Part shown: positions 1,773-38,232 of the stretch, in pieces | How the letters are laid out: every line of letters starts with the position of its first letter | How positions within the stretch are numbered: position 1 is the stretch's first letter | From: Candidatus Margulisiibacteriota bacterium | GTDB taxonomy: Bacteria > Margulisbacteria > WOR-1 > O2-12-FULL-45-9 > XYB2-FULL-48-7 | Reading direction: 5' to 3' | NCBI GenBank assembly: GCA_041661965.1 | Contig: JBAZTH010000001.1 | Span: 291,221-355,220 of the forward strand | Length of the DNA stretch: 64,000 nt | Translations under genes and position numbers: made by a program | The notes under the pieces: generated by a model | What the model saw: the letters and a program-made list of their open reading frames with translations, nothing else | The model's database searches: none | Told to the model about the DNA's origin: nothing

Positions 1773-1775
1773 TTC

Positions 1776-1856
1776 CGGTGTTTGGTTTTTTTGGTTATTT
1801 TGTTTTGGTTATTGAGTTTTGTTTGGTTATTGTCTCTTGGTAATTGGTTATTGAAC
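1776..1856 (+). promoter_or_regulatory. Copy B of the repeated leader element (core 1819–1852)
   Basis: About 55 nt nearly identical to copy A (tgttttggttaTTGAGTTTTGTTTGGTTATTGTCTCTTGGTAATTGGTTATTGAAC), then an AGGAGG RBS and the ATG at 1875. Confidence 0.6.
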
Positions 1857-1874
1857 AATAGGAGGTTGTCAGTC

Positions 1875-2402: not shown

Positions 2403-2440
2403 GACCAAAACGATGAGGGCCTTAATTTAAGTGACCTAGT

Positions 2441-11207: not shown

Positions 11208-11307
11208 GTCTTCCCCAGGAGTTGATTAATAAAGCCTTAGAGCAAATGAGTCCGGACCAGCGAGAGTATCTTACGCCGTTGCTAAAAGGGAGATCCTGAT
11301 CCATAAA

Positions 11308-11331
11308 GGGGGCGGAAGCGCCCCCTTTTTT
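11308..11331 (+). terminator. Rho-independent terminator
   Basis: GGGGGCGgaaGCGCCCCC followed by TTTTTT. Confidence 0.7.
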
Positions 11332-18761: not shown

Positions 18762-19664
18762 ATGACAAAAATATTTAGTAAAGGATTGCTTTTGACGGCG
18801 ATATTGATTGGGGGTGTGCTTTTTGGGGGAATGGCGATGGGAGGATGTGGAAGCTCATTAAGTTCAAGTACGAGAAGTGTTTACTGTTTTCCTGATTGGA
18901 CACCTGATGGGAAGATCCTTTGTGTAAAAGCTAAGGTTTCTACTTCTACGGGTGCGGGGTCGAATCCAAGTGTTGATTCCAGCGCGGAATATTTTATAAC
19001 AATTATGGATATCAATGGAAGTAATGAGGCGGATTTGAGGCGAATTAACTCTTATGGAGTTGCTGTTATGTCGCCATTAGGGAATTATATCGCTTATTCT
19101 GAAGGATCGAAAATAAAAGTTATAAAAGCAAATGGGGATGATTTGCATACTATTGGTCTTAATGATGGGTTTGAAGTAATTGGTCTTGATTGGGGTTCCG
19201 ATGAATCAAGTATTATTTATTATGCGGGGAAATCGCCGAATTTTGAACAAGCTGTTGTCGGCATTGATGGAGCAGGTAAGGCAATTATTTCAACAAACGG
19301 CGGATCGATTGCTTGGAGATATGGAGACAGGATTGTTATGCAAAAGCCGATTTCAACGGAAGTCAATAGAGTTGTTGCCATTGATAGGAGAACTTTAAAT
19401 GAAATATCATCTTACCCTAATGTTGTTGGAGGCAATTTCAACGTTAACAGAACAAGCACAAACGAGGTAGTGTTTTTTGGGGAAAAAATAGAAAAGTTTG
19501 ATTTAACCGCGCCAAGTATGCCCCCTGTGGTGATAATAAACAGAAGCGATATTTATGATATTAAACTATCTCCCGATGGTCAGAAAATTGTTGGAGATAA
19601 TGTTAACAAAATCGGTATTTATTTAATAAATATAGATGGCACGGGGTTTGAACAATTGAGATGA
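18762..19664 (+). CDS. Lipoprotein with PD40/TolB-like β-propeller repeats
   Basis: Lipobox AMGGC. Repeats FPDWTPDGKILCV and IKLSPDGQKIVGD. Stop overlaps the start of the giant gene (ATGA). Confidence 0.6.
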   Translation: MTKIFSKGLLLTAILIGGVLFGGMAMGGCGSSLSSSTRSVYCFPDWTPDGKILCVKAKVSTSTGAGSNPSVDSSAEYFITIMDINGSNEADLRRINSYGVAVMSPLGNYIAYSEGSKIKVIKANGDDLHTIGLNDGFEVIGLDWGSDESSIIYYAGKSPNFEQAVVGIDGAGKAIISTNGGSIAWRYGDRIVMQKPISTEVNRVVAIDRRTLNEISSYPNVVGGNFNVNRTSTNEVVFFGEKIEKFDLTAPSMPPVVIINRSDIYDIKLSPDGQKIVGDNVNKIGIYLINIDGTGFEQLR

Positions 19665-22600: not shown

Positions 22601-25600
22601 AACGCCGAAGTTAGTGAGAAAGCGTTAGTCGTAATCAAACTTAATAACTTATCGAATAAGACGACCACAGCGTATTTGGCTCAAGCGGGAACCTCTTCCT
22701 CAACACTTACAACTTATAGCTTTCTTGCTTCTTATGCCTGGCCCTATAACAATTCTTTTGCTCCTGGGCCTGAAGATGGGATCTATCGGGTCGAAGTGAT
22801 TGCTCGTGACGAGGCCGGGAACGAAAGTGCGCCCCGTACCCTTGAAGCGGTCCGGATCGATCGTACTCCGCCAACCATTTTGGGGCAGATCGCTAATCCA
22901 TATGTTCTTACCAATATTGGCGCTAATGCTTATAAAACGACACTGACGTACAATTTAAGGGAGAATGGATTGGGAGATAAGGGGGAGGGGGTAGGGGTTA
23001 AAGTTAAGATATTTAATGCTAGTACTGGCCTGCTGGCCGATGCCTATGAAGAGGCTCCGGCATCGTTAACAGAAGAAAATAAGATCGTTTGGCATTCTGT
23101 TTCTGATCTACCGAAAGGAGCCTATAAATTCCAAATCACCGCGACCGATGATGTCGGTAATACCGCGACCGCGTATTCTTCCTGTGTCAAAGACGGGATC
23201 GCCCCTAGCCTCTCTTTCCCGGCGGAAGATGGGGCTGAAATTTCCGGGTTGGTCGCTATCCGCGGCACCGCCATGGACCCCGACTGGTCAAACGATAAAC
23301 CGTTCAAGCAGTACCGGGTTTATTTAGCCAGGGGCGATAAGTCAAAAATGGAAGCCGCGACGATCTTGTCGCAGGCTTCCGAGCTTGTTTTTTCCGCCAT
23401 CGAAGTTCCCTTGATCAATAGAGGCGGCGGCGCCTCAAACATCTCTCTCCGGCCATTGCAGAATGATGCCACTCTGGCTTATCTCAATACCAATGGGCTG
23501 GAAAATGGTGACTATACCATCCTAGTTGTAGTTGATGAAGAAAACGGCGACTCTTTAGCGGTCACACGACTAATAAAGGTTAATAATGGTTCATTTCGCG
23601 CATCAGCCATGACTGCTCCTTATGTTAAGCTCAAGCCGCTGGCTTCTACTGTAGACTTTAAAGCCGACGATTCGGTAAAACTTCAGATCGGCTTCATTAA
23701 TAGCGTCAAGTCGGCCAATGTCTATGTGGAGATTCTCAAATCGCAGGACGAAAAGCTTGTTTATTTTAAATATTTCCCCAATATTCTTGGCGCCCCCTTT
23801 ATCGGAAAACCTGATTATAAGGCGGGGACCGACCTTGGTTATTTTATCTGGAGCGACGAATCTGGCTACCATATTCGCTGGTCGGCCGATGGTTCAAGTC
23901 ATAAGTTCAGCGGTAATTTGATCGCGATGGGAGGAACAGTTAACATAACTGGTGGCAACTCTTCTGTTTCCAGTGGGAGCATGATCAGTTGGAATAAGAC
24001 ACTTTCCGGTGGTGAAGGAGGCTTCGATTTTACCGCTGATGGCGGCCAGCTGATGATCACCCCCAAGCTTGATGAGGACCCAAGTTCCCCTTCGATCTAC
24101 GCTGATAATGTTTACCTTGGGATAACCAAACAAACCCAGCAATACCTGCCGTTGGTGATTGATGTCGCCGGCCAGCGACTGGTTAGCCTTGCTGGAATGG
24201 GGCAGACTTCTTCTTCGATTGCTGGTCAGCCTCCTTCCGGGATTGACTGGGATGGTCGTTTGGATACAGGAGCTTATGTTGATAACGGGAGCTACATTGT
24301 CAAAGTGATTGCCGAAGGGGTGGATGGACAGGGACTGGCCTCTGCCGAAGCGGTGGTTAATGTGACCACGCCGTTTGAATTGAAGATTAAAGAGGCGACC
24401 AATAAAGAGTTTAGTTCTCTTTCAGTTCCTGACCGGGTTTCCATTTTTTACAATGTTTCCAAAGATGCTCTTATAACCGCGCAGGTTCAGAAAGAGAATG
24501 GCGATTTTGTTGCCAGCTTGGCCGCCGGGAAAGAGAGCCTAGGGACTCTCCCAACTAATCCCCTTTCCTTGGTTTGGACCGGGAATTATCCCGATAACGA
24601 CTCGACCCAGGTAGTGACCGGCGGCACTTATAAACTTATTCTGACTGCCGCTGCGAAAGACGGGTCCGGAAACCGCACCGAAACGATTAGTGGAATTAAA
24701 GTTGTCTCTTTTGCCAGAAATGAAGCCTTGGTTAAACTTGAACCGATTGGCGAGGAGGTTGATTATAACGATGGACTTGGCTTGAAAAAGATCCGTTTAG
24801 CAGACGGAGAATCACCGTTATATTTTGAAGCTAAGGGTTATGGCAATTACCATCCAGTAAAAGATCTTACATATACTCTGTCCGCTCAAGGGAAGCAAAA
24901 GCTGACCGCTTATCCGTATGTGTCGTTCGCCGGCCTGATGCATCGAGGGTTTAATGAAGTTGATACGAAAATAAAAGTTATATTCAAGATTCATGCTTGG
25001 AATCATTATTTGGGGGCTGAAGATTATTGGGCATTAGGTAGGTTTTGGAATCCTATGAAGTGGCGAAGGGAAACCAAGGAATGGGTTGAGGAAAAATGGA
25101 TTGCTGTTGATAGCCTTCCTAGTGGGGCTGGAGTAGGGACCGTTTTTAAAGTAGGGGATCAGGTAAAAAATTATACATTCAATTTTGACAGTTATAATTG
25201 GTGGCCCCAAAATGAAAATGATCATTATTACAATAAAGATAAATTTGGTTGCGGGATCGACGCTGTTGATGTCCAGGTTGAAGTCTACACAAAAAATTCA
25301 GGATTTATCTTGGATAAAAATGTTGATTGGCTTCTTGTAAGTCAAGAAAAGCCAACTAGCAAAGGCATATTTAGAACGGCCTATAGCGGAAGCAATGGAG
25401 AATCTCATTATGGAACCTTAGTGTCTGGCGGAAATCGATATGATAAAACATACGGCACTTATCAGGTAAATTTAACCATTAAACTTGAGGCTCCTATTGC
25501 CTATTCCCGCCTGACCAACCGTTTTGTCCCTTGGTTTGGGTTTGTCAGGGCCAATGAAGCGAAACAAAAAGATTTTTCGGAGTATTTAACCGACATCAAT

Positions 25601-28600
25601 CGTGGCTTAGGTTTTCCAGGGAAATTGTTTTTTGATGATCCTAGTGCCAAGCCTGATGTCGCTTATAAACCGAAAACCGAGATCGAAGCGGAATTGGCAG
25701 GGTTAACTTGGGAAAAACGAAGCCAAAAATTAAAAGAAATGAGCGAACAAGCCAATCTGCTTGGCTACAAAGACGCACTTGCTTCTTCAGTCGGTTATGA
25801 TAGCTATCTTTCTGACGGATACTATGAATTTGTCCCGATTACTTATCCGGATCAGGCGAATATAAGCAAATCCGGCTTTGATTATACCAATGATTCGAGC
25901 TTAGTTAAGGTCCACACCGATCTTACCTATCACGGGGACGGCAACCCCCAATCGCCTTTTGAATTCAGTTGGCCGTGGCGGGAGAGTGAATATACAGCCT
26001 TTCTGGCCACTCAGGAAACGCAGCGAAAAAGATTGGACAAGGATTACGGCGGTGAACCTCAGAATTATACTGCGCCAACGATTGATGGGACATTCTGGAC
26101 GCTTGATCCATCACAAGTCAACCAACGGAAAATCGACCAAAATAATAGCAAGGTTTCCGGCGGCCAGATTCATTACAACAAAGCGACCAGAAGAGGGGAA
26201 TGGAGCTCAACCCAGAACCCGGTAACTAGCCGGAGCGTCGATCAGATTATGCCTTTGCCCAGCTATGTTTACGATAAATCCTTCAAAGTCGAAAGCAATA
26301 CTCCAGGGATCAAGCTTATGCTCTCTTCTTCAGCTCTCAGCGCGGTAGTTAAGGCCGAAGATCAGGATATCAACGGCTTTCCTTGGACGACCGCAGATGA
26401 TACCAATCTGGCCGCTAACCGCGGCTACGTCAAGAGCCCTGCGCTGATCTTGAATCCCGATGCTTTTCGGTCCAAGCGGTTGATTAAACTTTCTTCCGCT
26501 TACCAGATTGTTGATGATTATAAATCGACTGGAGCGGCAAGATTCACTTTCCTGAAAAAACACCCGTGGGAACCGGACAACCAGGATAGCCCGGTCGATA
26601 ACCCCAATCTTGAGATCGACCGCTGGGAAGTCATAGTTAAAGATAAAAGCGGCGCGGTCAATAAAGATGTCGCCCTCGAAAATGTTACGACTGGCGCAAA
26701 GCGGTTAGACGATGCCCTTTCTCTTAAGCTGAAAATTGACGCTTCAGAAGCCCGTTATGTCGAGATTAAAGGTTCGGCTCCCGGCCCGTACGAACTCCTC
26801 TATTATGATGGTAAGAGCTGGCAGTCGATCACCCAATCGTTTGATGAGACTCCGACCAGCGGGCGCCTCGCCTGGTGGAACGTCTCTCGCTTGAACGGCG
26901 AATACACGGTTATGCTCCGTGCCGGCAGTTACATTTCAACTCAAAACGTTTCGATCGGGACCCTGATCAAAAAAGACGATGGGGGAGACGCCTGGAGCAC
27001 ATATAAACGGGCCCAGCTGAAATTCCCGCCCCATGCTTTTGGCAACCGTGATCAGCTGGCGACGGTCACTCCGGTGACCATGAAAGAGATCAAGCTCCGT
27101 AACAAGCCGATCATCCTAACCTCCGGGCCGATCGTTGAGATCAAGCCTTCCTGGAAATTTACGGTTAGCTCCCTCGAAGGGGTTGATCTGCGGCCGACTC
27201 TCCGTTTCGTTTACACTTTTGACGAATTGAAAGAACTGGGGGCTTGGAATGGCGAAGGAGAGCCTAAAAACCTCCCCTGGAACATCCATCAAGTGACCGA
27301 AGCGGGAGACCTGCAGATCGTTTCCGATAACCAGCAGACGATCGAAGAAAATAACGGTGAAAAGCATTACGTTTTCTACGCCGCGCTTGACCATTTTTCA
27401 ACTTACGCGCTTCTGCCTGGTAAATTTAAACTTTCCGCGCCGATCGTTCTGGCTGATCGTTATATTACCAATAAAAATAGCGTCACTATTTATGGTACGG
27501 CGGAACCGGGTTCGGTTTTAGGTCTTAAGGTTTCGAAAGAGCCAATCTCGGACACTTCAAAAATTAATAGCCTTGATGAGATAACGGCTGACGAGAAAGG
27601 GAATTTCCGGATTGAAAATGTTCCTCTGATTCAAGAAGGAGCCAGCTACATTTATGTGACCGCGCACCCTCAAGGGAATTCAGAGATCTTAACTTGCGGC
27701 GACGTTATGGTAACGAAAGACACAATCCCGCCAACGGTTGGCATTGCTCCAAATCTTTACGCCTTTTCGCCTAACGGCGACGGCAAATATGACAGTGTCG
27801 ATTACCTTTTGACGATGAATGAAAAAGGGAAGATATACTTAGGAGTTAAGAGCGATTCGAACGACCTAATCAATATTGACGCGCCGCTTTTGGCTGGAAA
27901 AGAGCTCAAGGTCAATTGGTCGAAAGAAGGCTTTAAACTATATCGTCGGGATAACGCGACCGGCCTTTGGACTCTTTATTCCCAGGTCCCGAATCCTTCT
28001 AATCCAATAGACGGAGGATATTCTGTGGTTGGTTACGCGATCGATGAGGCGGGGAATATTTCCGATAACATCATGGTTAAAACTATAATTGATCTCACCC
28101 CGCCAAAGGTTTTGGGCTTAACCGCCGATCCCAATCCATTCACCCCCAATGACGATGGGGTAAAGGATGCAACTAGTTTCTGGTATAAGTTTAGCGAGCC
28201 GGTGACGGTAAGCCTGGGGATATACCGCGAAGATGGCGGTCTCTTTAAGAATACTGAAGGGGAAACGGAGAAGTTTACTTATCCAACAACAGATAGGAAC
28301 CGCGACGTTCAGTCGCAGGTTCCGTCGGTTGGGCAGTGGTCCTGGGATGGCCGGGGGAATCGCAATGAACTCCTTGGCGGAAACTATTCATATTTTATTT
28401 ACGCGGAAGATTGGGTTGGCAATACTGTTTCATCGGAGGTCAAACAGATCGTTGTTGATCGGGCGCCGACCCTTATCCCGTACGTTTTTTTCGAGCCCGA
28501 TCCATTTTCCTCGGCAAAGGGGACGATCATTAAATACTATCTTGCCCAGGACGACTTGAAAGTTACTGCGGCGATTGTTGGGGAAAGGGGCAAGGTTATT

Positions 28601-31600
28601 AAAAACCTGCTCAATGAGTCTGTTCAGGGGAAGGGCGAACATCAGCTGTTCTGGAGTGGCGATCTTGATGGCGCCAGCAAAGCGGTTGATGGCTCATACA
28701 CCATTAAGATAAAAGCGGTTGGTGACGGCTTGTCGGCGGAAGCGACTAATACTGTGCGGATCGATAACACCAGCCCAACGGTGATTCTCCAACCACTGCA
28801 AATCGACTATACCAGCAAACAAGGAACAATAATCTTTTCGATCCCGGAAGAGGCCAAAGTCGATGTTTCAGTCGTTAAGGCTGATGGTAGTATCGTTGTT
28901 TTAATGTCCAGCGAAGCTAATGCGGCCGGAGAACACCAATTGTCATTTAGTGCGGCAATAGTTGGCAGCGATGGGCAAGTAATGGTTTCAGCGGTTGACC
29001 GGGCGCAAAACGAAGCGGCCGCGACGGTCCCATTCTCTTTCCTGCCGCCGAAACTGCAGATCACCGATCACCTGGCCGATCCGGCGATCTTTACCCCCAA
29101 CGGCGACGGTCATACCGATACCACCCGGATTGCCTATAAGCTTAGCGGTGGCAGGGCTCCTTACATAGTTAACGTGAACATTGCTAACTCCTCCGGGACC
29201 AGTGTAAAGCGCTTGGCGGATAATGACGAGCAATCCGCCGGTAGCAATTCATTCTATTGGGATGGGAAATCAACGGTCCTTTCATCCGTTGAAACGTATG
29301 TTTCCGACGGCGATTATCAATACCAGGTTTCTGCGGTTGATGCTGATGGTGTTAAGCAGGAGGTTGCTGGCAAGCTCGAAGTCGCGGGAGGGAAGATCAC
29401 TTCCAACTTCAATTTGAGTGCCCAGTCGTTTTCTCCTAATGGCGATGGGGTTAATGAAACTCTGGGGATAACTTATTCAATCAATTACCCGCCGTTTTAT
29501 AACGTGCCGGGAGAGCCCCAGGTCCTACTAGCGATCCTGGCGGCGAATGGTGACCTTCTCTATCAAACCGGTTTAGAGCGCGCTCCCGGTACCTATACGT
29601 ATGTTTTTGACGGGAAGAGTAATTTTGACGCGCCGGGCTTGCCTATCGGTTCATCTTTAACAACCGGTAAATATTACGCCCGGATCACTATTCAAGACTC
29701 GCTGGGGACGGTTACTTCGTTGACCAAAGACTTTGCGGTTGACGTCACCAACCCGGAAGTTGTTATCTCCAGCGAGGCGGGGATGATCGCCAATCCGTCA
29801 AGCTTTTCGACCAATGCTAATCCAGATGGGAGCGACCGGCCGCGCAGCACAACTCTATATTACAAGCTGACCGAAGATACACTGGTTTCGGTCAAAGTCT
29901 ATAAGATTGACGGCAAGAAAGATTACCAGCGAACTGACTTCACGGCTGACAATCTAATTGCTACGCTGGTTAATGGCCAGTGGCAGAGTGGTGGCCAGCA
30001 GTACCAGGTTAATTGGGACGGAAAGATGGCTAGCGGAGTTTATGCCGATCCCGGTAAATACGCTTTCATTGTCGAAGGAGCAGATACCTTGGGAAATACT
30101 ACCCTCCGGAAGTGGGGCGGAACGGTCTGGATCCAGAACAATGTTTTGACTCTCCGTACTCCAGAACAGCTTGAACTGGCGACACTTGCGGTGACCAACA
30201 ATCCCGATCCCCGCGCCATCTCGCCGAACGGCAACAGTCAAGAGCTGGCCCAAAAACGGGCTCGTTTCTACTTTATGATTGATCTTTCGTTGGCACCGGC
30301 GACGGTTGAAGCGGCGGAGCGGATCGAGGCGATGGGGGTAACCGTTAATACCAAACCAGTTGGCAAGTATTCCGTGAAGGTTTATAGCGACAGTGCTATG
30401 GCTAACCTGGTTCGGACTATTACACCTGACGCTGTTGCTCAATCGGGGACACTCTCCTGGGAAGATTGGGACGGGAAAGCTGATGGCGGCGCCTACTCTC
30501 CAAATGGCAATTACTGGCTGGCGGTTGAGCTTCAGGATTATGCGGGGAATAAGCAACCACTGCTGATCGGCCAGGTAACTGTTGATAACACTTTGCCCGA
30601 GGTTAAGAATGTTTTGGCTGCTCCATATTTCTTTGCTCCGGGCGGGACGAATTCGAGCCTTAAAACGACCACTTGTAGCTATGAGGTTGCCGATAATTCC
30701 GGCAAAGTTAAAGTTGTGATTGGAGCTTATAGTGGGAGTGCGTTGGTAAAAACTTTAACGGCTGATGCCTGGCAGGTAAATGGTAATTATTCGATTGATT
30801 GGGATGGGTCCAGCGTGACCGGCTATGTTGGCAGTGCCAATGGAAGCGGCTTTATTGATGGAGAATATACCTTGAAAATTATGGCCTATGATGAGGCCGG
30901 CAATAGTTCGGTTCTCCAGTCGGCAAATGTAAAAGTTGATACTTTGCCTCCCGATGGAGTAGTCGTTATTGGCAGCGGGAATCCGCAATTTACTAGTTCG
31001 CCAACTGTTGAGCTGTTTGCTTCTGCTAGTGAGCCAACTTCCGGGGTCAATAAAATGAGCTTTAGCAACGACGGCGCAAGCTGGTCCTCCTGGGAAGATT
31101 ATTCAACGCTGGGTAAGGCCTGGCTCCTTCCCGCTGTGGATGGGACCAAAACGGTGCGGGTAAGATTAATGGATAACGCTGGGAACTATTCGACCGCTGT
31201 TTTTGCCGATCAGATTGTCTTAGATTCTGCCGCGCCGGTTATTAAGTCGGTAGTCCAGCCTCAACCGGTTACTATCAATAGCCCTACAACCAGTTTGCTT
31301 GGGGGCATGGCTGATTTCAATGGCGGAGCCGATACAATTTCCGGCATAAACAATTGGCAGATAAAGATCGTGAATTCCGGCGGCAGTGTTGTTAAAACCT
31401 TTGGCGCGACGGTTACTCCCGCGCAAACCGGTGATCTTGTTATTAATCAGGAATGGGTGCCGACAGGACTTGATGGTTATTATTACTATTATTTTACCGC
31501 GACCGACGCGGCCGGCAATGCTTTTGATTCCAGAAAAACCGGCTATGGCGCTTATAAGCCACTAGGTGGGAACGATACTTATTATCGGGTCTTTGTTGAT

Positions 31601-33364
31601 AAAACCCCTCCAGCGGTCGATATAACTAGCCCGACGCCAAGCCAATGGTATAAAGGGACAATAAATATCAGCGGCAGTGCCTCTGACAGCAATCCCGGAC
31701 CTTACAAGCTTGAATACGCCATTGCCAATACCAATAATTGGACTTTGATTTCCAATGGGAATTGTCCAGTCAGCGGGGTCTTGGCAGCCTGGAACACGAC
31801 TGCTTTAAACGGTGATTATGATTTAAGGTTGTCCGCGACCGATGAAGTTGGCAATTACGCGGAGAAGAAGATAACCATTAGGCTTGATAATACTCAACCG
31901 GTTATTACGATTATTCCGGTTTCACCGATCACCTTTAACCCTTATGTCGACGGCAGCGGCAGAATTGATTTTACCGCGACCGATCCGGCGCCAAGCGGTG
32001 GTTTTTCGATTGGGAACATTTCTTCGGTGGTTAGATATAACGGACAGATTGTGAAATATCTGCCTATTTACAGTAGTGGCGGCAACAGTTATTACGTCTT
32101 GTGGGATGGGACCAATATTAGTGGTGATTACGAAAATGAAGGGAGTTATTCGATCGAGATCGGCGCTGTAGATGTGGTTGGCAATAACGCGGCAACGGCT
32201 AGCCTCGGCATAAATTTGCAAGACAATCAACGACTGCTTTACAACCTTAATAATACCGAATTAACAGGTTTTGATATTGTACAGATTGATATAGTTTTGC
32301 AATGGCAGCAAGGGCCTTCATATTACGAGAAAAATTGTGGCAAAGAGTATCAAATTAATCTTCCTAATGCGCCAGTTCAGCCAAGGACGGTAGCAAGATC
32401 GAAATATACTAATTATGCGGTTGGAAATTACCAACATGTTGTTTCTGTAACAAATGGGAATGTTTATTATAAAAGAATCATTGGCAACGATACATATGGC
32501 CCAATAAAAGTGTATAGTGGTGGGAACGCGATCTCTGCCGCTATCTGTGCTGAAAACACGAATGACTCATATATTGCTTGGTTAATTAATGTTGGACAAT
32601 TTTATGAAATCTATTTCCAGAAAATCCCGGTTAATTTTGCCCCCAGTACTGGAACGAAATTAGGAGCAAGCGCGATTAAAAAAGGAATAATGGCGATTGC
32701 GACCCTCGAATCTCCATCCCTCCTTGCGCCCGCTAAAGATCGCCAGGATGTCCAAAACATCCGCCCTGCGTTTGAATGGCAACACCATAAGGCGGATACC
32801 ACCGAATATCGGGTCGAGGTTGCGAAGAACGATAGCTTTACGATCGACCACCAGACTTTCAGCAAAGCGGCCGGGACAGGGACACAAGATAAGTCTGATA
32901 GTAATCTCTACGCCTTTAACTACGCCATCCATGAGTTTGATCCTGGCTTAGAGCGGAATACCGACTACTTCTGGAAGGTTACGGCACTTTCTCCAACCAA
33001 TTCGGCGACCTCGGAGACCTGGGGCTTCCGTATCCAACCGGAGCTGACCTTGGTAGGGGTGACCAATTATCCAAACCCATTCAATCCGAACCGGGAGCAG
33101 ACCAAGATCCGCTACCGGCTCTCGGCTGACGCCGATGAAGTGCGGATTAGGATTTACGATATAACCGGTTCTTTGGTGACCGAACTTGACGGAACGACCA
33201 ATGGCGAAGGGATGAGCGTCTGGCAGAAGTATAACGATGTTTCCTGGGATGGGCGGAATGGGCGAGGGGATCTGGTCGTCAACGGGATCTATCCGTTCGA
33301 AATCATGGCGCGGATAGGTGATAAGACCGTGAGCGGGAGAGGGAAAATAGCGGTGCTCAAATGA
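19661..33364 (+). CDS. Giant (4,567 aa) secreted surface protein: signal peptide, N-terminal α/β-hydrolase (lipase/PGAP1-like) domain, many Ig-like and FlgD-Ig-like repeats, and a C-terminal T9SS/FlgD-Ig-type sorting domain
   Basis: Signal peptide MKKLLLMVFFCVLTLVQA; lipase nucleophile elbow ILTHSMGNMAARLY. Repeated F(S/T)PNGDGxxD modules (about nt 27775, 28145, 29095, 29435, 30225). C-terminal …NYPNPFNPNREQTKIRYRL…VRIRIYDITGSLVTEL…SWDGRNGRGDLVVNGIYPFEIMARIGDKTVSGRGKIAVLK is the classic Por-secretion-tail/FlgD_ig pattern. Uninterrupted 13.7-kb ORF. Confidence 0.8.
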   Translation: MKKLLLMVFFCVLTLVQAAISDDAAWINLNSRTEGTATYKDYLFILVHGINGSSQHFNGQDDRDKGLRLLQQLRDDLHLDGHIFAYSFSEKSGSNFTRVREFADRTYNNSASYVDENGKPVSMGGKCWLDKAREDYKRWYARTHPEYSRDENKWESVPDSIVPKKYIILTHSMGNMAARLYIYSKDLLGEDLYKNDVAKVVYIAPPFTGSDLAYLGMVPQGIFWDLQLWSKANEYNVLWEALLKNPTNFALDPRKTYKIAKEYAYWTLNGPVMLDNVTAQIGIKGASFQLNINELIHTEERPGGASLVKGSGACYQDPGLYELMPEMMMGVFFPKLLDAKLADDGNEPLYSVVYGQGSPLPNVRDSAIGGIVTQGIKYSLSDVNRSNLIAGVKNLSGTITTTPGEWGKVFGAGKNVFDEISDSAENGKLSFYNGFMGELLTVFGSGNFAKLPTEQAKFLALIQSNPAFVFSDDGDSAVPVDSAKGLYQGKSTRALRNANFYPVLLKSGFDDYLKTQFPGQFEVVVAAYYLSTQFVPEPAKTPIAIGCQYGLLLSFMERVNAFTPELQATTWSHTNTMLRQYDVIEKAILDTEAIFTVNDLQTTATNDANTLEAKTVKVFTTSVVVPSGYHSVQVKSAVENRNPTGLTNLPIPMTLDGQRMYVTQMTVTKPPKRIAGKLNYLIPRLMKQFEYSFNFAAWKPITGVDQETGEFELDDLPFAEGQNILAIRSENGVGIKSHQLLKIILNTIPMQPSQFKPLPEYYVATANPEISVEFNKSEYTGDYDSEKITIKGMTFDGEEVAPQVESSMEAYHPWAKASYKANGLSDGEHNVAVRAESNVGVAQGLWTFYVDTTAPTISIEPLAPYSPRGPTTIRYTVSDEVSPNLRFVRCDLYDKNDTLVTTIATADSLSKGENYFTLDPRSLDVSLLDGSYKIKIKAFDLAGNVAVAETPLIIDATPPKVGPVALTPNPMTSNTNELKMNAEVSEKALVVIKLNNLSNKTTTAYLAQAGTSSSTLTTYSFLASYAWPYNNSFAPGPEDGIYRVEVIARDEAGNESAPRTLEAVRIDRTPPTILGQIANPYVLTNIGANAYKTTLTYNLRENGLGDKGEGVGVKVKIFNASTGLLADAYEEAPASLTEENKIVWHSVSDLPKGAYKFQITATDDVGNTATAYSSCVKDGIAPSLSFPAEDGAEISGLVAIRGTAMDPDWSNDKPFKQYRVYLARGDKSKMEAATILSQASELVFSAIEVPLINRGGGASNISLRPLQNDATLAYLNTNGLENGDYTILVVVDEENGDSLAVTRLIKVNNGSFRASAMTAPYVKLKPLASTVDFKADDSVKLQIGFINSVKSANVYVEILKSQDEKLVYFKYFPNILGAPFIGKPDYKAGTDLGYFIWSDESGYHIRWSADGSSHKFSGNLIAMGGTVNITGGNSSVSSGSMISWNKTLSGGEGGFDFTADGGQLMITPKLDEDPSSPSIYADNVYLGITKQTQQYLPLVIDVAGQRLVSLAGMGQTSSSIAGQPPSGIDWDGRLDTGAYVDNGSYIVKVIAEGVDGQGLASAEAVVNVTTPFELKIKEATNKEFSSLSVPDRVSIFYNVSKDALITAQVQKENGDFVASLAAGKESLGTLPTNPLSLVWTGNYPDNDSTQVVTGGTYKLILTAAAKDGSGNRTETISGIKVVSFARNEALVKLEPIGEEVDYNDGLGLKKIRLADGESPLYFEAKGYGNYHPVKDLTYTLSAQGKQKLTAYPYVSFAGLMHRGFNEVDTKIKVIFKIHAWNHYLGAEDYWALGRFWNPMKWRRETKEWVEEKWIAVDSLPSGAGVGTVFKVGDQVKNYTFNFDSYNWWPQNENDHYYNKDKFGCGIDAVDVQVEVYTKNSGFILDKNVDWLLVSQEKPTSKGIFRTAYSGSNGESHYGTLVSGGNRYDKTYGTYQVNLTIKLEAPIAYSRLTNRFVPWFGFVRANEAKQKDFSEYLTDINRGLGFPGKLFFDDPSAKPDVAYKPKTEIEAELAGLTWEKRSQKLKEMSEQANLLGYKDALASSVGYDSYLSDGYYEFVPITYPDQANISKSGFDYTNDSSLVKVHTDLTYHGDGNPQSPFEFSWPWRESEYTAFLATQETQRKRLDKDYGGEPQNYTAPTIDGTFWTLDPSQVNQRKIDQNNSKVSGGQIHYNKATRRGEWSSTQNPVTSRSVDQIMPLPSYVYDKSFKVESNTPGIKLMLSSSALSAVVKAEDQDINGFPWTTADDTNLAANRGYVKSPALILNPDAFRSKRLIKLSSAYQIVDDYKSTGAARFTFLKKHPWEPDNQDSPVDNPNLEIDRWEVIVKDKSGAVNKDVALENVTTGAKRLDDALSLKLKIDASEARYVEIKGSAPGPYELLYYDGKSWQSITQSFDETPTSGRLAWWNVSRLNGEYTVMLRAGSYISTQNVSIGTLIKKDDGGDAWSTYKRAQLKFPPHAFGNRDQLATVTPVTMKEIKLRNKPIILTSGPIVEIKPSWKFTVSSLEGVDLRPTLRFVYTFDELKELGAWNGEGEPKNLPWNIHQVTEAGDLQIVSDNQQTIEENNGEKHYVFYAALDHFSTYALLPGKFKLSAPIVLADRYITNKNSVTIYGTAEPGSVLGLKVSKEPISDTSKINSLDEITADEKGNFRIENVPLIQEGASYIYVTAHPQGNSEILTCGDVMVTKDTIPPTVGIAPNLYAFSPNGDGKYDSVDYLLTMNEKGKIYLGVKSDSNDLINIDAPLLAGKELKVNWSKEGFKLYRRDNATGLWTLYSQVPNPSNPIDGGYSVVGYAIDEAGNISDNIMVKTIIDLTPPKVLGLTADPNPFTPNDDGVKDATSFWYKFSEPVTVSLGIYREDGGLFKNTEGETEKFTYPTTDRNRDVQSQVPSVGQWSWDGRGNRNELLGGNYSYFIYAEDWVGNTVSSEVKQIVVDRAPTLIPYVFFEPDPFSSAKGTIIKYYLAQDDLKVTAAIVGERGKVIKNLLNESVQGKGEHQLFWSGDLDGASKAVDGSYTIKIKAVGDGLSAEATNTVRIDNTSPTVILQPLQIDYTSKQGTIIFSIPEEAKVDVSVVKADGSIVVLMSSEANAAGEHQLSFSAAIVGSDGQVMVSAVDRAQNEAAATVPFSFLPPKLQITDHLADPAIFTPNGDGHTDTTRIAYKLSGGRAPYIVNVNIANSSGTSVKRLADNDEQSAGSNSFYWDGKSTVLSSVETYVSDGDYQYQVSAVDADGVKQEVAGKLEVAGGKITSNFNLSAQSFSPNGDGVNETLGITYSINYPPFYNVPGEPQVLLAILAANGDLLYQTGLERAPGTYTYVFDGKSNFDAPGLPIGSSLTTGKYYARITIQDSLGTVTSLTKDFAVDVTNPEVVISSEAGMIANPSSFSTNANPDGSDRPRSTTLYYKLTEDTLVSVKVYKIDGKKDYQRTDFTADNLIATLVNGQWQSGGQQYQVNWDGKMASGVYADPGKYAFIVEGADTLGNTTLRKWGGTVWIQNNVLTLRTPEQLELATLAVTNNPDPRAISPNGNSQELAQKRARFYFMIDLSLAPATVEAAERIEAMGVTVNTKPVGKYSVKVYSDSAMANLVRTITPDAVAQSGTLSWEDWDGKADGGAYSPNGNYWLAVELQDYAGNKQPLLIGQVTVDNTLPEVKNVLAAPYFFAPGGTNSSLKTTTCSYEVADNSGKVKVVIGAYSGSALVKTLTADAWQVNGNYSIDWDGSSVTGYVGSANGSGFIDGEYTLKIMAYDEAGNSSVLQSANVKVDTLPPDGVVVIGSGNPQFTSSPTVELFASASEPTSGVNKMSFSNDGASWSSWEDYSTLGKAWLLPAVDGTKTVRVRLMDNAGNYSTAVFADQIVLDSAAPVIKSVVQPQPVTINSPTTSLLGGMADFNGGADTISGINNWQIKIVNSGGSVVKTFGATVTPAQTGDLVINQEWVPTGLDGYYYYYFTATDAAGNAFDSRKTGYGAYKPLGGNDTYYRVFVDKTPPAVDITSPTPSQWYKGTINISGSASDSNPGPYKLEYAIANTNNWTLISNGNCPVSGVLAAWNTTALNGDYDLRLSATDEVGNYAEKKITIRLDNTQPVITIIPVSPITFNPYVDGSGRIDFTATDPAPSGGFSIGNISSVVRYNGQIVKYLPIYSSGGNSYYVLWDGTNISGDYENEGSYSIEIGAVDVVGNNAATASLGINLQDNQRLLYNLNNTELTGFDIVQIDIVLQWQQGPSYYEKNCGKEYQINLPNAPVQPRTVARSKYTNYAVGNYQHVVSVTNGNVYYKRIIGNDTYGPIKVYSGGNAISAAICAENTNDSYIAWLINVGQFYEIYFQKIPVNFAPSTGTKLGASAIKKGIMAIATLESPSLLAPAKDRQDVQNIRPAFEWQHHKADTTEYRVEVAKNDSFTIDHQTFSKAAGTGTQDKSDSNLYAFNYAIHEFDPGLERNTDYFWKVTALSPTNSATSETWGFRIQPELTLVGVTNYPNPFNPNREQTKIRYRLSADADEVRIRIYDITGSLVTELDGTTNGEGMSVWQKYNDVSWDGRNGRGDLVVNGIYPFEIMARIGDKTVSGRGKIAVLK

Positions 33365-33462: not shown

Positions 33463-34377
33463 TTGAGATTTAGAATTTGTTTGGTTATTGTTTCTTGGTT
33501 ATTGATTATTACATCCGCTAATGCGATTGGTCAATCTGGTGCCGACATCGCCGTCCTCAATGCCGGTGTCGGCGCTCGTCCGCTGGCCATGGGGGGCGCT
33601 TTCACTGCGGTTGCCGATAATGCCGACGCCCCATATTGGAATCCTGCTGGTTTGGGTTTTATTAGTAGCCAGGAGATAACCAGCAGTCAAACCAGACTTT
33701 CGACCGACGCCGATCATTATTACCTAAGTTACGTGACTCCGGCTCTGGGTGGAACGATCGGTCTTTCCTGGATTCAGGTTGGGCTGGGAAATATCGCCCA
33801 GACCTCTAGCGAGGTTGATATTCACAATGAAGTTCAGAATATTAGCTTGTTCAGCTACTTTTCTAGCGCCTACCTTCTTTCCTACGGAAAAAAACTGAAC
33901 GACCATATTGCCTTTGGTCTAACTGCCAAGTATCTAAGTTCCGAGATGTTTGGGATCAGTGGTGGGAGCGGCTGGGGCTACTCATTAACCCCCGGGATAA
34001 TGCTCCGCCTTGACCCTTGTCACTTGACCCTTGGTCTCAAGATCGACGAACTGATCAATACCCAGCAGTGGGGGACCGGGACGGTCGAAAACGTTCCGCC
34101 CAAGGCGCGGCTGGGCTTGAGCTGGCTTCCTTGGTCCGAAAGCCGGGTGGCGGTTGATATCAGCCAAACTGTTAAATCAGGTTATTCTCCGGAGGTTGTG
34201 ACCGGCTTTGAGTGGGCGCAAGGGGGAATTGCTTATCGAGCCGGATATAATTCCAGCGGCCTGACCGCTGGCGTTGGCTTTACCGTTGGCCACGCCAGGC
34301 TCGATTATGGCTATGTTCAAGACGCAAATTTTTCCTCGAACAATGTTCACCGGATCTCTTTAAGCGGGATTTGGTAA
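33463..34377 (+). CDS. Outer-membrane β-barrel of the PorV/FadL-like family. Start uncertain: TTG at 33463 gives a clean signal peptide, with the alternative an ATG at 33361.
   Basis: Mature N-terminus IGQSGADIAVLNAGVGARPLAMGGAFTAVADNADAPYWNPAGLGF matches the FadL/PorV N-terminal signature. Predicted cleavage after …LLIITSANA. Lies directly downstream of the T9SS-CTD cargo gene. Confidence 0.5.
   Translation: MRFRICLVIVSWLLIITSANAIGQSGADIAVLNAGVGARPLAMGGAFTAVADNADAPYWNPAGLGFISSQEITSSQTRLSTDADHYYLSYVTPALGGTIGLSWIQVGLGNIAQTSSEVDIHNEVQNISLFSYFSSAYLLSYGKKLNDHIAFGLTAKYLSSEMFGISGGSGWGYSLTPGIMLRLDPCHLTLGLKIDELINTQQWGTGTVENVPPKARLGLSWLPWSESRVAVDISQTVKSGYSPEVVTGFEWAQGGIAYRAGYNSSGLTAGVGFTVGHARLDYGYVQDANFSSNNVHRISLSGIW
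33477..33510 (+). promoter_or_regulatory. Copy E of the repeated leader element (here apparently overlapping the signal-peptide codons of the PorV-like gene)
   Basis: TTGTTTGGTTATTGTTTCTTGGTTATTGATTATT preceded by ggttattgagatttagaa, as in copy A. Confidence 0.5.
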
Positions 34378-35053
34378 CGCCCTCTAGCCTCTTCCCGCCA
34401 GAAGCCGCCATAGGCGGGCCTTGGCGGAATATTACCTCTACCTCTCTTTTGCTGGGTCATTATCCCGAGTTACCACCCCTTTTTTTTCAAAGCGGAGGGA
34501 AAGGGAGGGGGTAGCAAATGGTTCGTGGCTTGAAAGGTGACGGAGCGGGTTGCGGTTAGCGGGGAAAATGACCAGCTAAGCCCGCCAAACAGCTCTGGCT
34601 GGTTATTGGCCGCTGGAAGGCAGGCAATGCCTCGAAGAGGCGGCGGGCGGGAGTTCTCCCGACGGTAAAAGGCCAACTATGGGAAGGACGGTTTTGATAA
34701 AATCAATTAACGACCGCTATTTTTTACCTCCTGCTTAATATGAGCGTTAAATAAAACTGAAGGGGCAGGAACGCTGATCATTAATCATGGCGCAAAGAGC
34801 TTGAGACTTCTTCTCAAAGGCTGAATAAATGAGCTGTACGCTGGTTTTGTTTGCTAAGGAAGGAGAACGGATGCTGTTCAGCAAATAAAAGCAATAATGA
34901 GTTATTAGCGCTTTATAGCAGGCAGCAGCAGCGCGCAAGGTAAAAATATATAGGGATGTTGCGATCTTAGCCGGTAGCTTGGTCAATTAATGAGAGCTTA
35001 AAAATTAATTCCAGGGCGGCTTTTAGCTTATGGTAAACTTCAGGCCAAGTGGC

Positions 35054-35202
35054 CATCCATAGGTCTTGATATAATATCGGCGCGAATTTTCCTTTTCTGT
35101 TGCCATTTATTGCACTTCCTTCTTCTAAATTCAGCTTGTTGAACGGGGAATAAAAAAAAGGGACAATTCGGGACGCGGCGGCGGCGCTTTTTGCGGCATT
35201 TA
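35054..35202 (-). repeat. Left arm of a perfect ~149-bp inverted repeat (inverted copy of the miaB upstream region plus its first 18 codons)
   Basis: The reverse complement of 35054–35202 is identical to 36988–37136. Reading outward from this arm gives MATEKENSRRYYIKTYGW followed by an early stop. Confidence 0.85.
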
Positions 35203-35322
35203 TTGTACGGCCTGCCCGCGGCTCGCTTTTTACTCCTGCTCATCCTTTGGCTCGCCGCACTGCAGGCCTCATTCAGAATTGTATTGACAACAACTGTAAA
35301 CACAATTAAACTATTATTGCGT

Positions 35323-35508
35323 ATGGCAAAAGAGCAAATTATTTACAATATGACTGAGTTGGCGAAAGAGCTTAAGGTTACGCGGCAAGCAATTTATAAG
35401 TGGATAAAGAAGGGTTGGGTTAAACCAAAAAGGGATTATCGTGATTATCCGGTATTTACCGAAGCTGATGTTAAGAAAATTATGAAATGGAAATCAGCAA
35501 TAAAATGA
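35323..35508 (+). CDS. Small HTH DNA-binding protein (excisionase/MerR-like; possible recombination directionality factor), 61 aa
   Basis: MAKEQIIYNMTELAKELKVTRQAIYKWIKKGWVKP; stop overlaps the recombinase start (ATGA). Putative TTGACA promoter at 35284. Confidence 0.55.
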   Translation: MAKEQIIYNMTELAKELKVTRQAIYKWIKKGWVKPKRDYRDYPVFTEADVKKIMKWKSAIK

Positions 35509-37295
35509 AAACAGCCATCTACACCCGAGTTAGCACCGAAGATCAAGTTCGCGAGGGGTATTCTCTTGAAGTTCAGAGGGAATATCTTCTTAACTACGCT
35601 AAACAGCAGGATTGCGAAGTGTTCGAGGTCTATTCGGACGAGGGGATTAGTGCCGGCACTACCGATCGCCCCGCTTTGCAAAAACTTCTCAAAGATGCCA
35701 AGGCGAAGAAATTCGAGCTGGTTATCGTTTATAAAATTGATCGTTTCAGCCGCCGACTCAAGGACCTAATTGGGCTTGTTGATCAGTTGGAGTCGTATGA
35801 GGTAGGGTTTAAGTCTGCTACCGAACCTTTTGATACCACCACCTCTGCTGGAAAGTTGATGTTTCAACAGCTTGGCAGTTTTGCTGAATTTGAACGGAAT
35901 CGTTTGGCCGAGAGAGTTTTCCCTGGTATGGTTAAAAGTATTCAAGGCGGGAACTGGCATGGTTCCCGAAATTGTCCGACCGGTTACGCTTACAACAAAG
36001 AAAAGAAGCTATTAGAGATCAATAAGCGGGAAGCCAACCTTGTTCGCTTGATTTACAGATTATATCTGGAAGGGAAAAGTACGACCGATATCGCTGAATA
36101 TCTGAATAAAAGTAAGCATGAAACAAGGGTGGGTCGGTATTTTTACCAAAAATATATAAGAGACATATTAAGAAATCGTATTTATATCGGTGAGATTGTT
36201 TGGAATAAGTACCATTACGATAAAAAGCAGAAAGTTGGCAAAGGGCATAAATATGTTAAGAACGATTCTTCAAAATGGATAGTTGCCAAGGGAAAACATC
36301 AACCGATTATTTCAGTAGAAGATTTCGAGAAGGTCCAGAAACTATTAAACGAAAACAACCTTGCGCCTGTTCGCAGGGTGCAAAAAAGTAAATTTGCCTT
36401 TAGTCGATTACTTTATTGCGAAAAGTGCAATTATCGTTTCTTCGGGGTTTCAAATATAGCTAATCATCGGACGGGTGAACGCAAAACCTGGTATCGTTGC
36501 GGTGGCCATCAACAGCGACATGTAAGATGTGGGACTGGAGCGATCAGAGAAGAAGTTTTAGAAATGGTGATTCTATCGGCTATTAATAATATGCTTGATT
36601 CCGATAGGTTAAAAGGGAGCCGATGGACGAGTATGACCGACCTCCAAAACCAATCAGAAACAAGCATTTCTAATGCTGACCTTGCCAGCATTAGAAATGC
36701 CCTAAAAGAGAACCGGGAAAAGCAGTTAAAATTAACCGATCTTTATCTCGGCCGGCACCTTTCCGAAGATACTTTTAAATTGAAAAATGAAGCTTTGCGA
36801 CAAGAGGAAGAGGTGCTCCGCTCAAAACTGGCCGGCCTCGAAATATTGTTGCTGGAAAAGGAAAATTCCTCCGACTATTTGGATAGGGTCAAGTCGTATC
36901 TTGCTTCCTACGACCCTCAAAAAAAGGCATTGAGCGCCGCCGATAAAAAACAAATTCTTGGTCTCTTTTTGAAGAAGATTGTTATTAAAAATGCCGCAAA
37001 AAGCGCCGCCGCCGCGTCCCGAATTGTCCCTTTTTTTTATTCCCCGTTCAACAAGCTGAATTTAGAAGAAGGAAGTGCAATAAATGGCAACAGAAAAGGA
37101 AAATTCGCGCCGATATTATATCAAGACCTATGGATGCCAGATGAACGTCGCCGACTCTTCAAAATTGGCGGAGGTCCTCGAAGAATATGGCTACCAGAGG
37201 GGAGAGAGCGAAGAGACAGCCGACATTCTTCTGATCAATACCTGCGTTGTCCGCCAGGGGGCGGAAGACCGGGCCGCCTGGTATGTGATGTCTAG
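35505..37295 (+). CDS. Large serine recombinase (resolvase catalytic domain, recombinase domain, zinc ribbon, coiled coil). The ORF reads through the right inverted repeat into miaB.
   Basis: MKTAIYTRVSTEDQVREGYSLEVQ…VIVYKIDRFSRRLKD (catalytic Ser motif). Cys cluster CEKCNYRF…YRCGG. Coiled-coil tail. No stop until 37295, so the last ~70 codons are encoded by the repeat and miaB 5' sequence and are probably not functional. Confidence 0.75.
   Translation: MKTAIYTRVSTEDQVREGYSLEVQREYLLNYAKQQDCEVFEVYSDEGISAGTTDRPALQKLLKDAKAKKFELVIVYKIDRFSRRLKDLIGLVDQLESYEVGFKSATEPFDTTTSAGKLMFQQLGSFAEFERNRLAERVFPGMVKSIQGGNWHGSRNCPTGYAYNKEKKLLEINKREANLVRLIYRLYLEGKSTTDIAEYLNKSKHETRVGRYFYQKYIRDILRNRIYIGEIVWNKYHYDKKQKVGKGHKYVKNDSSKWIVAKGKHQPIISVEDFEKVQKLLNENNLAPVRRVQKSKFAFSRLLYCEKCNYRFFGVSNIANHRTGERKTWYRCGGHQQRHVRCGTGAIREEVLEMVILSAINNMLDSDRLKGSRWTSMTDLQNQSETSISNADLASIRNALKENREKQLKLTDLYLGRHLSEDTFKLKNEALRQEEEVLRSKLAGLEILLLEKENSSDYLDRVKSYLASYDPQKKALSAADKKQILGLFLKKIVIKNAAKSAAAASRIVPFFYSPFNKLNLEEGSAINGNRKGKFAPILYQDLWMPDERRRLFKIGGGPRRIWLPEGRERRDSRHSSDQYLRCPPGGGRPGRLVCDV
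36988..37136 (+). repeat. Right arm of the ~149-bp inverted repeat, containing the miaB RBS, start codon and first 18 codons
   Basis: Identical to the reverse complement of 35054–35202. Confidence 0.85.
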
Positions 37296-38232
37296 CAAGG
37301 GATTGAAGGAGAAACATCCCGGGGTGATGATTGGGTTATGCGGTTGTATTGTTAATGAACCGGGGCGAGATATTAAAAAAGACTTTCCTCACATTGATTT
37401 TTTTATTCCACCTCATAGTCCTAATAAATTAAAAGAGTTTTTATCCTCTTTATCCCACTTTCCCCCTTCCCCCTTAATAAGGGGGAAGGGGACAGGGGAT
37501 AGGGGTGGAGTGGTGGGTGAGGGGCGCCATGAAGACGTTACATACATTACTGTAATGACCGGTTGTAACAACTACTGTTCGTATTGTGTCGTTCCTTATG
37601 TTCGGGGGCCGGAAGTTAGCCGGCCGATGGCCGAGGTCCTGGCCGAAATTGAACAGGTGATGAATGGGGGAGCAAAAAATATTATTCTTCTAGGCCAGAA
37701 CGTCAACGCTTATCAATACGGATTAGCTAATCTATTAGAAAATATTGCTTTCGCGACTAAACGTCGCGGTTCCGAGTCCTTACGAGTTGGCTTTTTAACT
37801 TCCCATCCCAAAGATATGTCCGATGAGATCATTGAGTCTGCCGCTCGCTTCCCTTTTATTGCCCGGGAGTTTATTATGCCGCTCCAATCCGGGGATGACG
37901 CGATCTTGGAAAAGATGAGACGCGGTTATACTCTCGATTATTTCCGGGGCCGGGTTAATAAGCTCCGGGAATTGATGCCGGACGTGCGGCTGGTCTCTGA
38001 TCTGATTGTCGGTTTTCCCGGTGAAACTGACGCCCAGTTTGAAGCGACCCTGCGGGCGGTCGAAGAGTTCCGGTTCTCGGCGGTCAATATGTTTGCTTAT
38101 TCTCCCCGACCGGAGACCGACGCGGCCAAGTTCCCCGGCCAGTTGTCGGAAGAAGTTCGGCAGAAGCGGCTCAAGCGCCTGATAACCCTGGTCCGCTCCA
38201 CAGTAAAACCCCGGCAATCCCTTGTCAACTAA
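37084..38232 (+). CDS. miaB: MiaB-family radical-SAM methylthiotransferase (MTTase N-domain and CxxxCxxC core). The C-terminal TRAM domain appears to lie in the +1 frame (frameshift or pseudogene-like 3' end).
   Basis: YYIKTYGCQMNVADS…; radical-SAM box CNNYCSYCVVPY. The ORF stops at 382 aa, but a TRAM-like continuation (GVLTIDSRSKSDKITIV…FGFREYVRLVD) lies in the +1 frame at 38206–38394. Confidence 0.7.
   Translation: MATEKENSRRYYIKTYGCQMNVADSSKLAEVLEEYGYQRGESEETADILLINTCVVRQGAEDRAAWYVMSSKGLKEKHPGVMIGLCGCIVNEPGRDIKKDFPHIDFFIPPHSPNKLKEFLSSLSHFPPSPLIRGKGTGDRGGVVGEGRHEDVTYITVMTGCNNYCSYCVVPYVRGPEVSRPMAEVLAEIEQVMNGGAKNIILLGQNVNAYQYGLANLLENIAFATKRRGSESLRVGFLTSHPKDMSDEIIESAARFPFIAREFIMPLQSGDDAILEKMRRGYTLDYFRGRVNKLRELMPDVRLVSDLIVGFPGETDAQFEATLRAVEEFRFSAVNMFAYSPRPETDAAKFPGQLSEEVRQKRLKRLITLVRSTVKPRQSLVN

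Follow-up and report, generated by a model that had tools for sequence, protein, structure and literature searches.

The serine recombinases Hin, Gin, Cin and Pin are proteins of ~190 amino acids that act on 26-bp sites with a Fis-dependent enhancer, and their genes sit within or next to a segment flanked by inverted repeats; in the Mu G and P1 C segments, inversion swaps alternative C-terminal ends of tail-fibre genes. Large serine recombinases (LSRs) also invert the DNA between sites that lie in inverted orientation, and in synthetic memory devices such as the Bxb1 'RAD' module an integrase flips a segment between inverted attB and attP sites and a directionality factor resets it. Here, we describe a natural cassette in a 64-kb stretch of DNA from a Candidatus Margulisiibacteriota bacterium (the window; its copy of the cassette is called WIN and copies at other loci carry L-numbers), in which an LSR gene and a small helix-turn-helix (HTH) gene are enclosed by two inverted-repeat arms at the 5′ end of the tRNA-modification gene miaB. 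Compared with Hin and Gin, the recombinase is large, the arms are 150-180 nt and the end that would be swapped is the recombinase's own; compared with 'RAD', the geometry is the same, but the recombinase lies inside the segment and the sites would be regenerated by each event. From the sequences, we put the chances evenly for and against the arms acting as inversion sites of the recombinase, with the LSR cassette flipping while a miaB start is kept in place.

Serine integrases such as those of TP901-1, A118/LI, SPbeta (SprA, with SprB), phiC31 and Bxb1, together with CcrB/CcrC and XisF, have the same resolvase, recombinase and zinc-ribbon architecture as the enzyme described here, likewise have a small, directionality-factor-like DNA-binding partner gene, and cross over at a fixed dinucleotide in a conserved host gene, as we predict for this locus. 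Unlike in those systems, the sites here are inverted around the recombinase gene within 148-nt perfect repeats, both sites share one half, so that recombination would regenerate its own substrates, and the element supplies the start of its target gene. In phages with integration-dependent immunity, the crossover reportedly lies in the 3′ end of an open reading frame (ORF) whose C-terminus varies with the recombination state, the tail being a degradation tag; there the switch is integration or excision, whereas here both sites are resident in the chromosome. Elements at dusA are said to restore the end of the gene that they enter. The nearest published logic is that of the dusA-specific integrases, a whole family that targets the 5′ end of a single conserved tRNA-modification gene (Farrugia et al. 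2015, PMC4482086); the trait in common is an integrase gene that abuts the att site, here an LSR gene at the 5′ end of miaB in ~40 loci. The dusA islands differ in having tyrosine integrases and direct attL/attR repeats, and are not known to have an inverted-repeat cassette or an alternative integrase tail. A full-text literature search returned nothing on serine recombinases at miaB, and no described counterpart of inverted, self-regenerating sites combined with a recombinase whose C-terminus depends on the state of the locus.

Arms and interior of the cassette

The arms (X beside miaB and its inverted counterpart, X′, on the left; Table 1) are 100% complementary in both a repeat search and a base-by-base check and lie 1787 nt apart. 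A preliminary description of the locus had reported perfect inverted repeats of ~149 bp; they are perfect, but positions 35202 and 36988 do not pair and the length is therefore 148 nt. The window has exactly two occurrences of a 42-nt segment taken from the arm and 100 shuffles have none, so the repeat is no product of chance. Elsewhere in the 64 kb, the arm and its left flank are absent, and so is a second, direct copy of X or of the adjoining flank Y upstream, as a conventional attL would provide. X has a triple role: the final ~50 recombinase residues are coded in it, the ribosome-binding site (RBS), ATG and first 17 codons of miaB lie on it, and its end coincides with the Cys-codon TG of the invariant GCQMN motif.

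This content recasts part of the earlier account, in which the right arm held the native miaB RBS, ATG and codons 1-18. The RBS and ATG are indeed there, the arm containing GAAGGAAG and the ATG at 37084, but coding continues for only 17 codons and the TG of codon 18 (Cys), and both arms are better read as element-borne surrogate miaB starts, which also encode the end of the recombinase, than as a native arm and its copy. The proposal that the unit regenerates the miaB 5′ end holds, and the left arm does point outward and end after 28 codons as described, forming a decoy ORF; in most other lineages, this ORF ends in TGA right at the junction because Y there begins with A. The palindrome GGCCAAGTGGCC, likened earlier to an att core, is present at 35043-35054, but it belongs to the putative flanking half-site Y, and the crossover probably lies at the TG where the arm ends, within the Cys codon of GCQMN.

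Table 1. Positions of the cassette, its flanks and its target gene in the window
Feature	Position	Strand	Description
Region U, left of the cassette	34378..34966	.	Conserved, non-coding, no ORF; probably element-borne in this lineage
Y, outer half-site and putative alternative recombinase C-terminal exon	34967..35053	-	ATWPEVYHKLKAALELIFKLSLIDQATG, then stop, in the LSR frame
Decoy ORF from duplicated miaB start	35023..35106	-	MATEKENSRRYYIKTYGWPLGLKFTIS, then stop; 27 aa + stop = 28 codons, left arm read outward
Left arm X′	35054..35201	-	Inverted copy of miaB 5′ end and LSR 3′ end; 148 nt, 100% complementary to 36989-37136
Promoter-like site TTGACA-17-TAAACT	35284..35312	+	Upstream of HTH gene; 10/12 consensus match only
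61-aa MerR/excisionase-like HTH protein	35323..35508	+	Pfam MerR_1 3.5e-6, HTH_17; PHROG 66
Large serine recombinase (LSR)	35505..37295	+	Resolvase, Recombinase and Zn_ribbon_recom domains
Perfect 15-bp palindrome/hairpin, 7-nt loop	36664..36700	.	Within recombinase gene, peptide ISNADLASIRN
Right arm X	36989..37136	+	LSR C-terminal coding, miaB RBS, ATG and codons 1-17, inner half-site
miaB-type methylthiotransferase	37084..38232	+	UPF0004 and radical SAM domains (Pfam); no TRAM seen
Predicted crossover dinucleotide TG	37135..37136	+	In GCQMN Cys codon; arm identity ends after TG

Between the arms, the promoter, excisionase-like HTH gene and large serine recombinase of the earlier account all stand, the promoter as a consensus match alone and as the best such site within 34300-37400. 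The 61-aa HTH protein has MerR_1 and HTH_17 domains and its best PHROG is PHROG 66, 'excisionase and transcriptional regulator' (2.3e-7), making it a likely candidate for a directionality factor or regulatory partner; a partner gene also occupies this position in L004, L015, L087, L088 and L036. The recombinase matches PF00239 (1.5e-39), PF07508 (2.8e-25) and PF13408 (2.4e-9) as well as the PHROG 95 integrase (5e-124), its residues 14-493 align to SPbeta SprA/YokA, and the motif YTRVSTEDQ, which holds the serine nucleophile of the catalytic domain, is invariant across 31 homologues. With at least 494 residues and LSR domains, it is not a small (~190 aa) Hin/Gin-type recombinase with a C-terminal HTH, and the PHROG 'DNA invertase' covers residues 1-284 only. 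Nor is it of the IS607 type, in which a MerR-like HTH is fused to the catalytic domain: the HTH here is a separate gene, and the NCBIfam IS607 match is partial (41.7 bits against a 110-bit cut-off).

The LSR gene probably starts at the ATG at 35505 (MKTAIYTRVSTEDQ), with a further in-frame ATG upstream at 35487, and to all appearances the ORF is intact and complete. As first described, it has no stop of its own: it meets none before the right arm and continues to 37295, such that its last 102 codons consist of right arm and miaB, with an overlap of ~70 codons with the latter. The palindrome within the gene keeps a perfect stem (14-15 bp) through compensatory double changes in L004, L005, L008, L087, L089 and L009 and is missing in L012, a relative of the Omnitrophota type. 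Its role could be that of an operator bound by the HTH dimer, or it may form an RNA hairpin.

In other copies, variable cargo lies between the HTH and recombinase genes, including a 347-aa protein in L015 (615-1658), RES and DUF4238 genes in L088 (7876-9997), and unannotated ORFs in L005 (9183-10004) and L087 (197-1347), and the cassette thus evolves like a small cargo-carrying mobile element.

A family of elements at the miaB start

A scan of species-representative genomes returned about 45 relatives, and the module is one member of a large, apparently undescribed family of LSR elements at the first codons of miaB rather than a new enzyme class. Across ~40 loci, in which LSR identity ranges between 83% and 40%, the recombinase ORF is closed by the TGA within CAG-ATG-AAC of a downstream miaB-type GCQMN, and the shared LSR C-terminus, '...SLKLTAAR' followed by the stop, is what 'YFIKTYGCQMN' gives in the alternate frame. 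In 15 loci (WIN, L004, L005, L008, L010, L012, L013, L017, L020, L021, L022, L023, L026, L028 and L030), the module lies beside miaB between inverted repeats of 119-182 nt that are mostly 99-100% identical; the hosts are WOR-1/Margulisbacteria, Omnitrophota, Elusimicrobia and bins labelled Planctomycetia.

In 11 of the 12 loci scored, which come from three phyla, the repeat ends on its outer side directly after the Cys-codon TG; beyond it lies CCARATGAAC, the miaB body (Z), on one side and the different, conserved flank Y on the other. In a subgroup, the junction follows the next TG instead, seven bases further (CAGATG, then G). On its inner side, the arm has its edge no more than ~8 codons away from LSR residue 494 in every lineage. 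The TG, which is invariant where the arm ends, is likely the 2-bp crossover dinucleotide, and we are confident that the module is a site-specific element of the miaB start with its crossover at this TG.

Some features would fit an inverted chimera of assembly or multiple displacement amplification (MDA), the trivial alternative named in the preliminary description: a 148-nt arm is near read length and longer than common k-mer sizes, and several assemblies break at the arms. The architecture recurs in 15 independent loci, however, and independent groups and assemblers (MEGAHIT, SPAdes) agree on it, as does the curated complete genome WOR-1 RIFOXYB2_FULL_45_9, with arms of 169 nt and 99.4% identity. 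Independent assemblies, in which a lack of the repeat would have spoken against it according to the preliminary description, carry the identical sequence in JGI and ENA contigs. JGI contig Ga0172379_10115835 (L001) equals window positions 35079-37111, that is, the interior and exactly 123 nt of each arm, as expected from a k=123 assembly graph that collapses a true inverted repeat and takes both interior ends into one node; ENA MEGAHIT contig k141_144291 begins exactly at 36989. The window is syntenic with WOR-1-type DNA (72% nucleotide identity over 4.6 kb), and the same syntenic place is occupied in L004, a metagenome-assembled genome from NCBI (LSR 83% identical, 164-nt arms ~99.3-99.4% identical), and in the ENA contig L005, whose name resembles hifiasm output (LSR 77% identical, arms diverged to about 77-82%). 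Since the arms have diverged in L005 (82%) and in L088 (91%, not beside miaB), the threading of these repeats is unambiguous. We therefore rejected the chimera, to which we assign next to no probability.

More distant relatives indicate what the wider family does. No second copy of X was present within 6 kb in the 22 loci that have no inverted repeat, and the distant relatives examined carry mobile-element cargo, namely an NrS-1-type primase-polymerase in L036 and AbiEii-like and Ymh genes in L011. A direct attL-like junction, in which native IFIRTLGCQM meets a Y-type flank, occurs for another element, in locus L130, the sole such case. This cargo and this junction point to integrative elements that replace the miaB start with their own copy. 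In WIN and the 14 other miaB-linked loci, by comparison, the second copy is inverted and no direct attL/attR boundary is found.

No unoccupied miaB site was found among relatives, where the preliminary description had suggested looking for one: exact-protein look-ups of flanking genes gave only contigs that break at the repeat or at the conserved left region, scanning JGI for the 38 outermost nt of the arm gave nothing, and a scan with a conserved motif of U returned three more loci, all arranged U-Y′-X′-HTH and none of them empty. A phage origin was also set aside, as only one close relative occurs among IMG/VR viral contigs.

In L006/L130, two direct junctions of miaB start and Y-type flank (6538-6687 and 11162-11310) lie 4.6 kb apart with ABC-transporter genes between them, followed by a block of HTH_17, Ymh and type I restriction HsdR genes, as if elements had settled at the miaB start one after another. 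Outside the element ends, a repeat that contains a hairpin (TGTTTGGCGAATTTTG...CAAAATTCGCCAAACA) is present in L006 (24-144 and 2996-3112) and L088 (7251-7340), and the neighbours of the L088 copy (981-4034, 5954-6973) are a diversity-generating retroelement (RVT_1, bAvd and an Lcl_C target) and an IS110 transposase.

The target gene in the window is a 382-aa miaB-type ORF that scores 353.4 bits against NCBIfam TIGR01574 MiaB (cut-off 355.3), and, as the match spans no more than model positions 1-370 of 437, no TRAM domain is seen. The orthologous ORFs of L004 (362 aa) and L005 (365 aa) are just as short, suggesting a lineage trait rather than a frameshift. A perfect 14+14 nt palindrome (CCCCTTCCCCCTTA A TAAGGGGGAAGGGG) at 37463-37491 lies inside the miaB coding sequence, in a segment that aligns poorly to L004, and may be an in-frame insertion of a small palindromic repeat.

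The left flank and two possible ends of the recombinase

The left flank is more than inert host DNA: Y encodes a conserved second C-terminus for the recombinase. It remains open for 9-28 codons in the LSR frame in 12 of the 12 inverted-repeat loci scored, the tails having a common hydrophobic/aromatic-rich pattern as judged by eye, and in the miaB frame it gives an immediate stop in most loci. Among the best 120 homologue clusters, ~29 end in Y-type tails and ~70 in the miaB stop. Between WIN and L004, a 1-nt difference in LSR phase at the junction is accompanied by a 1-nt difference in Y length (18 vs 17 nt before a conserved TAC); the two cancel and the Y tail stays in frame, which is evidence that an LSR-X-Y product has been under selection in this lineage. 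In the phase of the window, the canonical miaB-frame stop is missed and the LSR therefore acquires 53 extra, unconserved codons.

A flank that belongs to the element and encodes protein bears on another reading of the locus, also raised in the preliminary description, as a serine-recombinase transposon with 148-nt perfect terminal inverted repeats, which as a palindromic X-AT-X′ circle would have entered a host site Y′-AT-miaB. In its favour, every LSR element has ends that by nature form inverted repeats, and both junctions here can accommodate an AT. Against this, Y accompanies the element type in unrelated hosts and codes for a recombinase tail, some copies have Y-type flanks on both sides, and the dinucleotide before the final G is non-palindromic elsewhere (TT, CT), the TG being what is invariant. 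By hand translation, moreover, the reconstructed empty site would not encode the MiaB N-terminus. The palindromic-attP model was rejected on these grounds, and a transposable unit of this kind appears very improbable.

Left of Y, the ~600-nt non-coding region U has long stretches of 95-100% identity across WIN, L005, L008/L091, L089 and L090, exceeding the conservation of neighbouring protein genes (counterparts at 7963-8651 in L005 and 4897-5537 in L008). Within each of the other lineages, elements have non-coding regions in common at the same position, suggesting that the left flank travels with the element, and a non-coding gap of ~500-700 nt lies left of the arm in all six loci checked. 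The 677-nt non-coding left region of the window has no Rfam match at E ≤ 1 and no tRNA or tmRNA, and U is a candidate for a new structured RNA or a dense set of binding sites of the element. An assembly break at 34894 was considered as the element boundary and rejected, conservation continuing on both sides; the break of other assemblies near this position is probably better explained by the conservation of U across strains. Directly upstream, a 4567-aa ORF (19661-33364) with faint Ig-like/FlgD_ig matches overlaps at its 3′ end the start of a 338-aa ORF of no clear family, and both ORFs are syntenic in L005 and L008.

Inversion or a locked element

The two arms of a cassette evolve together. 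Within a genome, they are 100% identical in WIN, about 99.3% in L004 and 100% in L008, whereas between these syntenic genomes the arms are 57-64% identical, and by this comparison the pattern is one of concerted evolution. Arms are also exchanged: the recombinases P0038 (tail form, L088) and P0037 (miaB-stop form, L092) do not differ in their first 490 residues, the LSR gene having 0 mismatches in ~1300 nt and the cargo differing by about 13%, and the L092 arm is 100% identical to the left, not the right, arm of L088. Exchange and mosaicism of this kind could come from the host, since 148-182 nt of perfect identity is a sufficient RecA substrate, and the cassette might be inverted by homologous recombination between its arms, the LSR serving only the integration and excision of the wider family. 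Host recombination would leave unexplained why arm identity ends at the same TG across phyla and why Y encodes a recombinase tail, and we regard it as improbable.

Our proposal instead gives the arms to the recombinase. X-TG-Y (attP-like) and X-TG-miaB (attB-like) would be its two sites, in inverted orientation around its own gene, and recombination between them would invert the interior together with the arms. miaB would remain intact in either orientation because both arms carry its start, and the LSR would switch between the miaB-terminated form, here the one with the 53 unconserved codons, and a form with the conserved Y tail. Depending on the orientation, the promoter-like site, the sole strong one, would read into either miaB or U, and the HTH protein would be the likely directionality or regulatory partner of the LSR. 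The orientation with the LSR reading toward miaB would be the resting state, with flipping, if any, rare, transient or self-limiting. The DNA-inversion module of the preliminary description is thus what the geometry predicts, but the miaB-linked copies are all in one orientation. An L087 contig reads LSR-X-Y-U with 91-96% identity to L008, which has the opposite arrangement.

A number of observations weigh against inversion. L087 is a short contig, and short-read assemblers can mis-thread a 170-nt repeat. Among the ~45 loci, there is no flipped copy beside miaB, 15 of 15 miaB-linked copies having the LSR-to-miaB orientation, and no GCQMN on the opposite strand upstream of any HTH gene. The tail-form loci with usable context (L006, L015, L016 and L088) are not flipped either: they have Y-type flanks on both sides, the simplest reading being that another element of the family inserted between cassette and miaB at X-TG-Z; as X mimics that half of the host site, X-TG-Z acts like a regenerated attB. 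Given such an insertion, the Y tail could be selected in those states or in the excised circle rather than in a flipped state. Both sites share the same left half and so are not a canonical attP x attB pair, and RecA-dependent gene conversion alone could keep the arms identical. Finally, we found no single site-specific event that derives the inverted arrangement from a conventional integrated element, and the inversion model leaves unexplained both the origin of the inverted-repeat form and its movement between genomes.

An alternative to inversion is a static resident element of the miaB-targeting LSR family, its attP-type end fixed in inverted orientation, its arms kept identical by homologous gene conversion and the cassette trapped because inverted sites cannot support excision; the Y tail might then be conserved for excised or tandem states of related elements and not for this locus. 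The 15:0 orientation bias agrees with such a history, as do the conventional relatives with mobile-element cargo and no second X within 6 kb, the direct attL-like junction in L130, and the syntenic, apparently vertically inherited cassettes of WIN, L005, L008, L089 and L090. Decayed copies exist as well, the 77-82% identical arms of L005 coming with a tail that is out of frame and the left end of L092 being eroded. On the other hand, the compensating 1-nt changes that keep the Y tail in frame arose within a vertically inherited lineage, the architecture persists in three phyla, where cargo varies and the inner boundary of the arm is conserved, the LSR ORFs look intact and the arm boundary is sharp at TG everywhere. 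A locked element is a real possibility, if on the unlikely side.

A fuller version of inversion, which we offer tentatively and regard as doubtful, would make the locus both a natural flip-flop and a landing pad. As X mimics the host half-site, each event would regenerate an attP-like and an attB-like site and inversion would be reversible; the tail would gate activity, with the tailed LSR active and the miaB-terminated LSR inactive, which would explain the one-sided orientation. X-TG-miaB would stay open to further cassettes, giving an integron-like accretion at the miaB start of the kind that L015 and the L006/L130 arrays suggest, and the promoter would be switched between miaB and U, possibly a new structured RNA, as alternating targets.

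In conclusion, the crossover of a whole LSR family could be placed on one dinucleotide in the universally conserved GCQMN of MiaB-type enzymes, and the family offers ready-made, phylogenetically broad recombinase/site pairs for testing and engineering. Even if static, the cassette represents a mobile element that is hard to delete without removing the start of an important gene, because it supplies the miaB start itself. If it flips, it would be a natural version of the synthetic integrase memory switch and would subject a tRNA-modification gene to control by a recombinational switch, in phyla that are uncultivated and little studied.

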